Assembly (NCBI GenBank): GCA_965279515.1
Contig: CBDIID010000003.1
Coordinates: forward strand, 928,001 to 992,000
Reading direction: 5' to 3'
Source: Turneriella sp.
Lineage (GTDB): Bacteria; Spirochaetota; Leptospiria; Turneriellales; Turneriellaceae
DNA length: 64,000 bases
A program made the translations under genes and the position numbers. Below are positions 11,812 through 30,454 of the stretch, piece by piece (position 1 is the first letter of the stretch; every line of letters begins with the position of its first letter). The notes below the pieces were generated by a model that ran no database searches, had not been told where the DNA came from, and worked only from the letters and a program-made list of their open reading frames with translations.

Positions 11812-11947
11812 ACTGAGTAATTAAAGCAACGCAAACTTCAGAATCGAATCATAACGGCGAGACAAATTGGCATCATCCAAAACTTGGCCGGGTTTGGCGT
11901 TCATTATTCGAATTGCCAATACCTTTTGGATTCGGCCGGTGGCGGAC

Positions 11948-12733
11948 GTGAAGCTACAGAATAAAAACATCATTATCGTTGGCGGCTCGGACGGCATCGG
12001 GCAGGCCGTCGCTCTTGCATTGAGCAAAGCAAATAACTCGATTGCAATCATTGCACGCAATAGAAAGACGCTCGAGCTCACGGCAAAGCAGATTGAAAAA
12101 AATGGCAGCCGGGCTCTTGTTTGTGTGGGTGACGCGGCAAACGGTAAATTGGCGAAAAAACTCGTGGCCGATATCTGGAAAAAATTCGGCCATATCGATA
12201 TGGCGCTCCTTAACGTCGGCGGTGCATCCGACGTTTTACGTGTCGCGACAGGTGACGCTGAAGAAGCAAACCACGCGATGCGGCTCAATTTCGACACGAT
12301 GACCAACTATCTTTTCCCGATTGCGCAGATCATGAAAGATCAGCCTCAAGGCGGGGTTATCGCGCACACGAACTCATTGGCCGGATATCTGGGCATGCCG
12401 CTGGCGCTTCACTATAATGCCGGCAAAGCCGCGACACGGATTTTTCTCGACGGTGCGCGTATTGAGCTCGCCCGCCATAATGTGCGAATCGTCAATCTTT
12501 GTCCGGGCTTCGTGCAGACGCGCCTGCAGGCAAAAAACCCCTTACCGACGCCTTTCCTTATGACACCTGAAAAAGCGGCGTTGAAGATGGTCAAGGCAAT
12601 AGAACGGGAAAAAAAGGAATATTCATTTCCCTGGCAATTGGCATTGAGCACTCATCTCGGACGCCTGCAACCAAAATGGATTTTGTCGATTTTCTTTCGT
12701 ATGGCCGCGGGTAAACAACTATCCGGTAAGTAA
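11948..12733 (+). CDS. Short-chain dehydrogenase/reductase
   Basis: GGSDGIG, YNAGK (YxxxK), PGFVQT; likely start GTG 11948. Confidence 0.9.
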   Translation: MKLQNKNIIIVGGSDGIGQAVALALSKANNSIAIIARNRKTLELTAKQIEKNGSRALVCVGDAANGKLAKKLVADIWKKFGHIDMALLNVGGASDVLRVATGDAEEANHAMRLNFDTMTNYLFPIAQIMKDQPQGGVIAHTNSLAGYLGMPLALHYNAGKAATRIFLDGARIELARHNVRIVNLCPGFVQTRLQAKNPLPTPFLMTPEKAALKMVKAIEREKKEYSFPWQLALSTHLGRLQPKWILSIFFRMAAGKQLSGK

Positions 12734-12740
12734 GACTATT

Positions 12741-12868
12741 TAGCGACGCAGGAATCGCCTGCGGCGCAGCGAGGACGCTGAGCGAACCCCGAACCAAAAA
12801 TTAGTATTAGCACTCGCTCTAACCAGCTGTGGCCGCTTTGCGGCCTCCGTCTTCGGTGCTACGTCGCC
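12741..12868 (-). pseudogene. Degenerate tandem copy of tRNA-Met with two 27-nt hairpin insertions and a destroyed anticodon arm
   Basis: Colinear blocks shared with 12875-12956: agactatttagcgacgcagg / cgaacccc / tcgctctaaccagctg / gctacgtcgcc; extra 27 nt at 12758-12784 and 12831-12857. Confidence 0.85.
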
Positions 12869-12881
12869 TCGAATAGACTAT

Positions 12882-12956
<75 letters not shown>

Positions 12957-12963
12957 ATTATTC

Positions 12964-12998
12964 TTACTAAATAGGGGCCGCTGGCCCCTATTTAGTAA
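12964..12998. repeat. Perfect 16-bp inverted repeat in the tRNA spacer
   Basis: ttactaaataggggcc-gct-ggcccctatttagtaa. Confidence 0.9.
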
Positions 12999-13003
12999 TC
13001 ATT

Positions 13004-13076
<73 letters not shown>

Positions 13077-13083
13077 GTATAAG

Positions 13084-13113
13084 TTATATTGTGAGTTTGA
13101 GACAGGGTGACAA
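13084..13113 (-). promoter_or_regulatory. Putative sigma70 promoter of the tRNA pair
   Basis: Minus strand TTGTCA followed 16-19 nt later by AT-rich CAATATAAC, just upstream of tRNA-fMet; spacing imperfect. Confidence 0.35.
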
Positions 13114-13258
13114 TCCTTTTTGGTATTTGGGCATCCCAATTGCTTAGCTGGCAGCGTGGAAATTTGCCGATGCTTGACCACCTATGCAAAAAATACAGTG
13201 CAAATCTCTCTCCACTAAAAGGCAAAAATCACCGTAAGGAAATCCGTTTAATCAGACT

Positions 13259-15361
13259 ATGAGCACCGCAACCATCTCTTACCGCAACGACCTGCAGGGC
13301 CTGCGTGCCATCGCTGTTATCGTTGTTTTTCTCTTTCATCTCTGGCCTGATACGTTTCGGGGCGGATTTATCGGTGTCGATGTTTTCTTTGTTATTTCGG
13401 GCTTTCTGATCACCAGCTTACTGGTGGCTGAAATCGAGAAAACCGGCGCGCTGAGCCTGGGCAATTTCTGGTCGCGCCGGCTACGCAGGCTCTTGCCTGC
13501 CGCCACGCTCGTTCTTTTAGTTTCACTCTGGGCTTCCCTGAAATGGCAGCCTGAAACCGAATGGCTCAATACCGCCAAACAGGTCTTCGCTTCAGCGCTT
13601 TATTTTCAAAACTGGATGCTGGTAGCGCAATCTGTCGACTATATGGCGCGCGAAGCGAGTGCCACCGTGGCGCAGCACTATTGGTCGCTCTCAATCGAAG
13701 AACAGTTTTATTTTGTCTGGCCCCTGCTGGTGTTTTTCTGCGCCCACCTCAGCCGCAGGTCCGGCCGGTCGATCCGCTCGGTCGCGGCAATTTTTTCCAT
13801 TTTGATGCTGGTCGTTTCTCTGTTTTTCTCCATTTTCGTGCTACGCAATACGCCGCAGGGTTATTTTGTCACCACGACGCGCGCGTGGGAGCTCGCCCTC
13901 GGGGCAACGCTTGCGATACTGTGGCCCTATGTTAAGCTCGCCACTGGCCTGCGCATCGGTCTTAGCTGGGCGGGACTCATCATGGTCATAGCATCAGTCT
14001 TCGTGGTGAAACAAGGCGGCGACTTTCCGGGATTCATTGCCCTGCTACCCACCATGGGCGCCGTGTTTCTGATTCTCGGCAACGAGGCGCGCTTCGCGGC
14101 TGGCTCTCTTCTGGGTAAACAACCGACACGCTTCATCGGCGATATCTCATACGCGATCTATTTGTGGCACTGGCCGCTGATTGTTATCTCAAAACATATT
14201 CCCCAATTGGCAAAATGGCCGGCATGGCAGGTTTCCGCGGGGATTATCGTCTTAACGCTGGTGCTCTCGGTGCTGACAAAATTCCTCGTCGAAGATCCGT
14301 TCCGCAGTGGCTTTCTCGCTTTCTTCAAATCAAACCGCAGGCGCTTTGTGATCGGCTCGCTCGCCACGGCACTCGTGCTGATCATTGCCGGCTCCGGAGT
14401 TTCTGCATACACTTGGGTTAAGGAAGAAAAAGCCTGGCAGGCGCTCAAGGCGAAGGAAAAGGCTACGATCCACCCGAAATCCGAATACCCCGGCGCGGCG
14501 GCCTTCGACCCGATTTCACCGGCACCGGTACCTGCAGGCATGCCGATCATTCCGAATCCGGTGATCGCCGAGCACGATATGGATGGCAAACACGCGCACT
14601 GCATGGGGCTCACGGGTAGCATGCAGATCAGGCAATGCGAATTCGGCGTGCGTAACGGGCCCAAGACCATCATACTTGCGGGCGATTCGCATGCGATGCA
14701 GTTCGGCACCGCCATTGAAAAGGTCGCGAAGCTGCACGGCTGGCGCTTCGTGATGTTTGTCAAACCCGCCTGCCCGTTCGGGGATTTCTCTGTTTATACC
14801 GAAGGGTATGAGCGCGGCGAATGCTGGCATTTCAGAAAAGAGGTACTGCGCAGGGTTCTCGAAATTAAACCCGATCTTCTGCTCGTCGGTTCGGCACGCG
14901 CCGGACTTTTCGGCCAGATTTCTGCCGCTGAAAAACAAATCACGGGCTTTAAGACGTATCTGCAAAAGTATATCGACGGGGGTATCCGCATGGGAATCAT
15001 CCGTGATAACCCGAGCCTGCGCATATCGGCACCCGGCTGTGTGCTCAGTTACGGCAAAGACCACACGCTTTGCAACAGCCAGCGCAAGCTCGTGATCGAT
15101 ACGCTGAAGGATTACCTCGTCAATGTAGCAGAGATGCTGCCCGAAGCCTCGCTGGTCGACCTGACGCATCTCTATTGTACCAAGGATATCTGCCCCGCGG
15201 TGATCGGCAATATTCTCGTCTACCGGGATAGCCACCACATCACCGACGCCTATGGAAAAACCATGGCGCCTTACTTTGATAAGGTTATCCGGAAGTTACT
15301 GCTGAAACCGGCACCGACACCTGTCGTTGCGGCAGCGGTACCACCGGCACCAGCGAAGTAG
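13259..15361 (+). CDS. Acyltransferase-3 + SGNH domain O-acetyltransferase (OatA/OafA-like)
   Basis: DLQGLRAIA, GVDVFFVISGFLI, RRLRRLLP, HYWSLSIEEQFY, SYAIYLWHWP; SGNH GDSH and DSHH. Confidence 0.92.
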   Translation: MSTATISYRNDLQGLRAIAVIVVFLFHLWPDTFRGGFIGVDVFFVISGFLITSLLVAEIEKTGALSLGNFWSRRLRRLLPAATLVLLVSLWASLKWQPETEWLNTAKQVFASALYFQNWMLVAQSVDYMAREASATVAQHYWSLSIEEQFYFVWPLLVFFCAHLSRRSGRSIRSVAAIFSILMLVVSLFFSIFVLRNTPQGYFVTTTRAWELALGATLAILWPYVKLATGLRIGLSWAGLIMVIASVFVVKQGGDFPGFIALLPTMGAVFLILGNEARFAAGSLLGKQPTRFIGDISYAIYLWHWPLIVISKHIPQLAKWPAWQVSAGIIVLTLVLSVLTKFLVEDPFRSGFLAFFKSNRRRFVIGSLATALVLIIAGSGVSAYTWVKEEKAWQALKAKEKATIHPKSEYPGAAAFDPISPAPVPAGMPIIPNPVIAEHDMDGKHAHCMGLTGSMQIRQCEFGVRNGPKTIILAGDSHAMQFGTAIEKVAKLHGWRFVMFVKPACPFGDFSVYTEGYERGECWHFRKEVLRRVLEIKPDLLLVGSARAGLFGQISAAEKQITGFKTYLQKYIDGGIRMGIIRDNPSLRISAPGCVLSYGKDHTLCNSQRKLVIDTLKDYLVNVAEMLPEASLVDLTHLYCTKDICPAVIGNILVYRDSHHITDAYGKTMAPYFDKVIRKLLLKPAPTPVVAAAVPPAPAK

Positions 15362-29611: not shown

Positions 29612-30454
29612 ATGGCGGAAAAAACGGCGATCGAACGCGCGGCGGCGATTCTCAAAGCGGCGAAACATCCCCTCTTCCTGAGCGGCGCCGGTATCTCGGC
29701 CGAGAGCGGTATACCGACTTTTCGGGGCACAGGAGGTGCTCGAGCCGGCGGCGACAAGGATGTCGCAGCCGCCGGCCGCGGCGCCGAGGGGCTTTGGAAA
29801 AATTTTCGGGCCGAAGCGACACGAGGTCGCGAGTCGGACGCCGCCAGGATGGCGTCCTTGCGTCCCGAAGAGCTGGCGACGCCCGAAGCTTTTCGCCGCG
29901 ACCCGGCGCTCGTCTGGGAATGGTACAACTGGCGTAAGCGCCTGATCTCGGAAAAGCAGCCGAACCCGGCGCACCATGCGATTGTCACCATTCAGAAAAA
30001 ACTGCCGGAATTGCTTTCGGTAACGCAAAATGTCGACGGCTTTCACGCCCTCGCCGGTCTCGGTGAAATTCTCGAAATGCACGGCAATATTTTCCGCGCG
30101 CGGTGTACATCCTGCAAAGCGGTGCATGCGATGCGCGAAGATGTAGATCCCCACACCGCCTGCCCTGCCTGTATGGCGGCGGCGCTGCGCCCCGACATCG
30201 TCTGGTTCGGCGAGCAGCTGCCGTCAGCCATTCTCGACAAGATCTACGAACGGCTACGTATCGCCGATGTCATTCTCGTGGTCGGCACTTCAGGGCAGGT
30301 TTACCCGGCCGCAGGTTTTGCGGTCGAGGTCAGGCGCCGCGAAGGGCATGTGATCGAGATCAACATTGAAGAGGGCCACAAGGCGTATGCGAACGATATT
30401 TATATCCGCGGCAAGGCGGGAGATATTTTGCCACAGATTGCGGAGCTGGTTTAA
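29612..30454 (+). CDS. cobB: Sir2-family NAD-dependent deacylase (class III) with two 18-aa insertions
   Basis: GAGISAESGIPTFR, WYNWR (YxxR), TQNVDG, HG, CxxC/CxxC, PDIVWFGE, VGTSG. Confidence 0.95.
   Translation: MAEKTAIERAAAILKAAKHPLFLSGAGISAESGIPTFRGTGGARAGGDKDVAAAGRGAEGLWKNFRAEATRGRESDAARMASLRPEELATPEAFRRDPALVWEWYNWRKRLISEKQPNPAHHAIVTIQKKLPELLSVTQNVDGFHALAGLGEILEMHGNIFRARCTSCKAVHAMREDVDPHTACPACMAAALRPDIVWFGEQLPSAILDKIYERLRIADVILVVGTSGQVYPAAGFAVEVRRREGHVIEINIEEGHKAYANDIYIRGKAGDILPQIAELV
29725..29778. repeat. 54-nt in-frame double-hairpin insertion 1 in cobB
   Basis: Follows TTTTCG, ends CG; gcac-aggag-gtgc and gccggcg(gcgac-aaggat-gtcgc)agccgccggc. Confidence 0.8.
29809..29862. repeat. 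54-nt in-frame double-hairpin insertion 2 in cobB
   Basis: Follows TTTTCG, ends CG; gcgac-acgag-gtcgc and ggacgcc(gcc)-aggat-ggcgtcc. Confidence 0.8.

Follow-up and report, generated by a model that had tools for sequence, protein, structure and literature searches.

Several groups of small DNA elements resemble, in one feature or another, the structure described here. Cyanobacterial small dispersed repeats, which Elhai and colleagues are said to have treated in 2008, are reportedly about 21-27 nt long, lack a target duplication, show a target preference, nest within each other and insert in frame; we know of no tRNA gene duplication connected with them. The double-hairpin elements of fungal mitochondria are small GC-rich inserts of two hairpins with no known transposase, and to our knowledge they have no fixed tRNA site. 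Integrases leave a partial tRNA duplicate beside the intact gene (attL/attR). RtT repeats contain tRNA sequence. Those of the E. coli tyrT operon are co-transcribed with the tRNA gene, according to a preprint (bioRxiv 10.1101/2024.07.17.603846). In the REP, REPIN and BIME families, TnpA-REP (RAYT) cuts at CT, and 3'-OH-primed amplification has been proposed for BIMEs, as stated in two articles (PMC3333891, PMC8266576).

We analysed a 64,000-nt stretch of the genome of Turneriella sp. (the window; G000:C3:928001-992000, G000 being the genome of the window), in which a second, interrupted copy lies beside a tRNA-Met gene. It carries two hairpin inserts, and the one in the D-stem is a cassette that recurs in the genus: a double hairpin of 25-50 nt, made of a near-fixed hairpin with an AAGA loop and a variable hairpin. 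The copy is part of a genus-wide system and most likely a DNA-level scar. The cassette shares with REP, REPIN and BIME repeats and their TnpA-REP (RAYT) enzymes the tiny palindromic units, mosaic clusters, local arrays, in-frame insertions and CT junction, as described in the literature (PMC3333891, PMC8266576, PMC3116915, PMC3733652). In tRNA copies it follows (G/A/T)TAG, much as the REP hairpin follows GTAG; however, this TAG is part of the tRNA target, and filled sites elsewhere lack it. Outside tRNA copies, the left flanks of such sites end in CGC, GCC, GAC, TCC, GGC and CTC, with no element-borne GTAG or CGTC tag. Unlike REP repeats, the cassette flanks no Y1 gene, is present in tens and not hundreds of copies, and enters tRNA genes at one fixed base, the gene being duplicated.

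The other systems differ as well. With the cyanobacterial repeats, as commonly defined, the cassette has in common its shortness (lengths peak at 26-29 nt), the lack of a target duplication, nesting and in-frame placement, but those repeats belong to another phylum and are likened by these general features, not by sequence. The fungal mitochondrial elements are organellar and are likened by description only. In contrast to RtT repeats, the Turneriella copies occur beside many tRNA genes, either whole or as 5' halves, with the break at nt 12; in contrast to integrase-derived fragments, they have no island between copy and gene, are broken in the D-stem and hold a constant cassette at the break. 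No description of such tRNA-copy cassettes was found in the open literature searched. The term 'tRNA' had zero hits in the two REP texts searched, and a term search in PMC6006769 had zero hits as well.

The interrupted tRNA-Met copy and its locus

Table 1. Features of the tRNA-Met locus (positions in the window).
Feature	Position	Strand	Remarks
Interrupted whole-gene tRNA-Met copy, 128 nt, without CCA	12741..12868	-	
Copy of tRNA nt 1-11, same as gene	12858..12868	-	
D-stem cassette, 28 nt, in place of T12	12830..12857	-	order: A, hairpin 1, A, hairpin 2, A
Hairpin 1	12847-12856	-	3-bp stem, AAGA loop
Hairpin 2	12831-12845	-	6-bp stem
Copy of tRNA nt 13-28 (D-loop region)	12814..12829	-	identical to 12929-12944; repeat family D2
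18 AT-rich bases where the anticodon arm would be	12796..12813	-	
Variable loop and 5' T-arm remnant	12783..12795	-	12/13 identical; repeat family D5
T-loop module, 26 nt	12757..12782	-	between G57 and A58
3' T-stem and acceptor strand	12741..12756	-	T part 2 changes, acceptor unchanged
8-nt trailer, common to copy and intact gene	12733..12740 (= 12875-12882)	-	
Gene-to-copy spacer, 14 nt	12869..12882	-	first 8 nt = trailer
Intact tRNA, CAT anticodon	12883..12956	-	likely elongator tRNA-Met
Perfect 16-bp inverted repeat between two tRNA genes	12964..12998	.	I1
Initiator-type tRNA-Met gene, upstream	13004..13076	-	
SDR oxidoreductase ORF, convergent on copy	11867..12733	+	

A first, sequence-only reading had described a whole-gene copy with its own 8-nt trailer just downstream of the tRNA-Met gene, unchanged acceptor strands and AT-rich sequence in place of the anticodon arm. 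All of this was borne out, and both acceptor strands are identical to those of the gene (Table 1). The reading had also placed two 27-nt inserts in the T-loop and the D-stem, with target duplications of CG and GTG. The placement is right, but the T-loop insert measures 26 nt, and the D-stem insert measures 28 nt and replaces T12, a net gain of 27. Neither has a target duplication; both D-stem junctions read CAC where the target reads CTC, because an A replaces T12 on each side. The limits of the T-loop module were set by four orthologues that end in GGC before the unchanged 3' part. This module has homologues in the four orthologous Met copies and one close match outside tRNA (L414), and the other four of the seven hits to its pattern look like chance matches in ORFs.

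Both inserts had further been taken to be exactly half as long as those in cobB. This is a coincidence, because the inserts of cobB belong to another module, which measures 15-54 nt in relatives, and D-stem inserts in other copies range from 13 to 50 nt (n=53 inserts). The cobB gene itself (window 29612-30454, + strand) holds two in-frame 54-nt hairpin inserts, and its counterparts in relatives have neither insert, one, both, or shorter ones at the first site.

The intact gene is the one elongator-type CAT tRNA gene in the genome, an identity that we presume from general acceptor-stem rules. ARAGORN with default settings finds 39 tRNA genes in G000, nearly one per anticodon, and no tmRNA gene. 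The trailer of the copy shares one base with the stop codon of the convergent SDR oxidoreductase gene. ARAGORN did not call the interrupted copy as a tRNA, and taking out the inserts, a check that the first reading had proposed, leaves no complete tRNA (T12 and the anticodon arm are gone). In an Rfam search the copy fell in no family; a promoter and terminator scan found nothing. Several familiar classes were rejected: an intron-containing tRNA gene (T12 replaced, anticodon arm lost), an RtT repeat (RF00391, no hit with E up to 10 in 12500-13300 and none at the gathering score in seven loci) and a MITE (cassette ends not complementary, no target-site duplication). Mis-assembly, a caution of the first reading, is very unlikely because contigs from two public samples span 12300-12927, the whole copy into the gene, with 0 differences; both samples come from one study and may be source material of this assembly.

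That the copy is the attachment-site scar of an integrating element is extremely improbable, in agreement with the first reading, which had argued that a whole-gene copy is not an att scar. The T-loop, which we take to be a known integrase crossover region, would fit such a scar, as would the fact that the SDR oxidoreductase gene beside the copy is missing here in three relatives (G001, G002 and G003). However, these relatives have a lolC/E-type permease gene directly after the copy, and in the window the whole-length copy lies only 14 nt from the gene with no island between. The ORFs checked on the flanks encode the SDR oxidoreductase, a permease and an acyltransferase-like protein, and the constant break at nt 12, shared by many kinds of tRNA, is no att pattern.

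The cassette and its target site in the genus

The same kind of copy occurs in G000 beside tRNA-Ile (both rRNA operons), Ile2, His, Asp and several Arg genes. A census covered G000 and the tRNA loci of five relatives, drawn from 150 of 177 matches. In these six genomes, 46 of 200 tRNA genes have an adjacent copy of their own nt 1-11, compared with 13/3274 in a swapped-flank control. The copies go with CT at positions 11-12: they are found at 45/116 genes with this dinucleotide and 1/84 without, or, counted by tRNA type, at 16/21 and 1/19; the census genomes are kin, so that Fisher values overstate the association. The initiator-type tRNA-Met gene lacks CT at 11-12 and lacks a copy in 5/5 genomes, and Lys, Phe, Gly(GCC), Thr(TGT) and Arg(CCG) genes have the motif and no copy in the census genomes. 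The break comes by nt 13 in all 66 adjacent copies; at nt 12, 55 of them have A, five T, four G and two C. Upstream of the gene the copies are 5' halves, in many cases with an inverted copy of the tRNA 5' end behind them; downstream they are whole genes. Both types form arrays of 2-3 or more units.

The first reading had considered a decayed duplicate that trapped elements. This comes close, but the D-stem insert is no chance capture, because an intact D-arm is found in none of the 66 adjacent copies, and the cassette occupies one and the same base in many tRNA types. The junction pattern gave 36 matches, in 12/14 genus genomes versus 0/6 genomes from the rest of the family, and a reversed-pattern control gave two hits. 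Among the junction matches listed, 25 of 27 distinct loci are tRNA copies. In one sister-genus genome, a different insert interrupts Met copies at this same position.

The cassette has a simple grammar (hairpin, A, hairpin, purine) and is placed at CT^C(A/G); in its strict form this grammar finds nine sites in G000 and none in three controls. When 53 inserts were delimited by their tRNA flanks alone, one of two 13-mers stood at the start of 30. The second hairpin forms all four of its terminal pairs in 39 of these 53, compared with 2.4% of shuffles, and its terminal positions show several pair types each (swapped pairs). At tRNA-His, one cassette lies within another. The idea of DNA-type GNA triloops was not supported, the loops being mostly AAGA or AGGA in a set partly selected on that word.

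Orientation of the cassette follows the motif on either DNA strand, not transcription. In tRNA-Ser(GCT) copies of G013 and G007, where the opposite strand reads CTCAG, the cassette lies antisense (2/3 genes with the motif, 0/3 without), and an antisense cassette is also present in a tRNA-Asp T-arm array of G013; the T-to-A change is seen in antisense cases too. An orientation that is led by the motif and can be antisense points to a DNA-level process. Outside tRNA genes, four stray attC-like sites are filled versus 0/174 sites within arrays, and comparison of empty and filled sites shows no target duplication, an empty CTC becoming C-W-cassette-C. In several genomes, compact cassettes also fill the GCT^CAG of palindromes that belong to one family scattered over unrelated loci, and some of these cassettes lie in frame in proteins. 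The base at the position of T12 is A in most tRNA copies and mostly T at the other filled sites.

Some further arrangements of such repeats were seen. In four genomes the 27-nt cassette, embedded in its host palindrome, is in frame with unrelated ORFs and encodes one and the same short peptide (L419, L420, L432, L433). Two long arrays of branched palindromes of about 210 nt, spaced at about 0.9 kb and bounded like attC sites, occupy G000:C3 about 90,700-170,700 and 3,734,000-3,805,000, with the cassette only in stray copies. Directly upstream of tRNA-Thr(GGT), Ile2, Val(GAC) and Arg(TCG) there are inverted, perfect copies of 17-21 nt of the tRNA 5' end (e.g. L075, L079, L085, L107, L140). Such leaders would compete with cloverleaf folding, and the Thr leader is kept in four genomes with G-U-compatible changes. 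On the 3' side of tRNA-Ser(GCT), Leu(TAG) and Ile2 there are arrays of another hairpin module (e.g. L097, L121, L122, L140, L364, L390), whose units at Leu(TAG) are connected by repeated copies of the final 10 nt of the tRNA.

Searches beyond the genus used patterns that are blind to other cassette sequences. Across all GTDB species there were 84 cassette-pattern hits, against about 69 expected by chance under even composition. Sixteen of the 84 are near a tRNA, and the 14 of these with listed titles are all Turneriella, Spirochaetota/Spirochaetes or Leptospiraceae. In the phylum, 9/401 genomes match a junction pattern, and the seven outside the genus have no tRNA nearby. Among 65 metagenome hits, five are interrupted copies, all with tRNA sequences of the genus Turneriella, and nine lie inside ordinary tRNAs. 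In all three data sets (GTDB species, 401 genomes of the phylum, metagenomes), the exact cassette adjoins a tRNA only in the Turneriella group. Two fermentation metagenome contigs from another organism (L278, L295) have plain tandem 5'-half copies of tRNA-Arg(CCT) with no cassette.

Origin of the copies, candidate enzymes and a possible RNA role

In the reading that we prefer, and to which we give about an even chance, the structure is a broken tandem tRNA-Met duplicate with two hairpin inserts, a scar left when a very small mobile DNA cassette entered CT^C(A/G) of folded DNA. A patch from another hairpin repeat would repair a nick made at the CT or beside it. Insertion in a single-copy tRNA gene would be lethal, and therefore only events that leave an intact neighbour would survive. 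Duplication from the nicked end could be direct or direct-inverted-direct, with later expansion into arrays, and the copy would then gain further modules (here that in the T-loop) and decay. For the nicking enzyme, the best candidates would be small GIY-YIG nucleases, whose genes have flanking palindromes with GCT^CAG, and IS200-like Y1 transposases. Some observations stand against the cassette model. No pair of empty and filled sites within one population was seen, and the absence of intact duplicates may possibly be due to faster deletion alone. The host palindrome reaches 9/27 genomes outside the genus, whereas the cassette junction is in none of the six other family genomes. Both inserts are retained in five Met copies from three clades, a persistence that neutral inheritance does not explain.

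Other sources of the copies were rejected. Reverse transcriptases number one or two unrelated ones per genome in three genus genomes, with none in two outgroups, and the ORFs are of no common type. For an RNA intermediate, the start of downstream copies at +1 would speak in favour, but upstream copies have 4-11 nt of genomic 5' flank in common with the gene, and no copy shown ends in an added CCA. Loss of SbcCD as the cause fails in that the outgroups also are without it.

A host-only origin is possible, although on balance unlikely. Replication or repair would switch template between folded single-stranded DNAs at short shared words with no dedicated enzyme, patching hairpin modules of palindromes into tRNA genes and making direct and inverted duplications; the cassette would then not be a mobile element in the strict sense. 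The host palindrome indeed holds words of the tRNA T-loop and D-stem, direct-inverted-direct leaders and pure inverted 5'-end copies exist without the full cassette, and several other module types occupy other tRNA positions and cobB. Moreover, SbcD models scored below the cut-off in 5/5 genomes, and template-switch models for inverted triplications exist (PMC4689423). However, a single junction base and a near-fixed first hairpin across 17 gene starts are sharper than random switching suggests, and two outgroup genomes without SbcD over the cut-off show no junction match.

No cognate RAYT or IS200 gene was found for the cassette. At the Y1 transposase loci (28 with PF01797, plus NF047646 hits in G002 and G011) the flanking palindromes are of other kinds; the cassette occurs in one Y1 locus (L173) but not as the flanking repeat of the gene. 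G000 has one IS200-like Y1 gene, with flanks unrelated to the cassette, and no match to the RAYT model NF047646. Regarding RAYT membership, the CT junction was found, both in the tRNA census (45/116 versus 1/84) and at attC-like sites, whereas the tag and the flanked Y1 gene were not; by these tests the cassette is no member of the REP/RAYT system. IS200-like Y1 genes without TnpB, each with its own perfect palindromes with AT-rich centres, were noted at L021:1440-1900 and in L151-L174.

Small GIY-YIG genes are the better positional candidate, and the enzyme step that they would perform is one we infer. A GCTCAG-type word is present in the flanks of 6/12 genus loci versus 0/4 in other genera, and one small GIY-YIG gene ends in a cassette-filled palindrome as found by script, a second by eye. 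No small GIY-YIG gene was found in G000 or in the closed genome G002, and the only GIY-YIG hit in G000 is of UvrC length. Our literature search on such genes found nothing relevant. Stand-alone GIY-YIG genes amid palindromic repeats, in a REP-like arrangement with a non-HUH enzyme, were noted at L428:1494-1859 (- strand) and in L437-L444 and L455-L461. A more specific version of the cassette reading, which we regard as doubtful, is that a two-hairpin cassette of <30 nt is moved by a stand-alone GIY-YIG nuclease whose palindrome is mimicked by the tRNA D-arm, that insertion duplicates the target and restores the gene, and that some products, such as this tRNA-Met copy, are kept as RNA elements.

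The first reading had also offered a co-transcribed, tRNA-like ncRNA. We consider it rather improbable that the copies are kept by selection as co-transcribed RNA elements closed by the acceptor stem (tRNA-like decoys, or signals for processing or stability), but part of the evidence does lean that way. The synteny check that it had called for showed orthologous copies in G001, G002, G003 and a metagenome contig, so that with G000 five copies keep both inserts. They stay similar although identity at four-fold sites in the adjacent permease gene is down to 0.41-0.52, close to saturation. A selected RNA role is possible because the five copies persist despite these near-saturated synonymous sites. 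Fifteen full-length copies differ at 9/225 acceptor-strand versus 40/255 anticodon-arm positions, although the acceptor figure is biased because copies are bounded by their ends and one alignment is poor. Furthermore, the two 5' changes of the G001 copy each replace a G-U by a Watson-Crick pair and so strengthen the closing stem, and the copy in the window is predicted to fold with a 10-bp closing stem (z -2.15).

Against an RNA role, the same check showed the copy to be absent at the locus in eight genus genomes, among them sisters of carriers (G005, G006, G007, G008, G010, G011, G012, G013), so that it is patchy on a tree built from one gene; in G009 the contig stops at the gene, and the survey has no G004 locus. 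The D-stem and T-loop are both broken, cassettes also lie antisense, and the copy matches no Rfam family. Stem defects in 37 cassettes comprise five A-C and seven C-T versus one G-T, with no G-U preference. At predicted equilibrium the copy would swap acceptor strands with the real tRNA (P 0.99, 3.9 kcal/mol, from secondary structure only). Protecting the real tRNA against mispairing may by itself be enough to preserve a self-sealing stem. Among sequencing runs recorded as RNA, none contained more than small shares of the stretch. One putative RNA run, which may or may not include the organism, left the copy uncovered, and this result is no evidence of silence.

Significance for tiny palindromic repeats and tRNA genes

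How tiny palindromic repeats move with no cognate transposase is an open question, and CGTC repeats are apparently another such case, according to one article (PMC3733652). In Turneriella the empty target is known exactly, from the tRNA genes and the attC-like consensus. With a junction of one base and candidate nucleases beside filled sites in cultured or near-complete genomes, the mechanism could be assayed with short oligonucleotides. The finding accounts for a class of 'pseudo-tRNAs' that annotation tools overlook, and the cassette reading would show that tRNA genes are targeted via a DNA hairpin and not as integrase sites.
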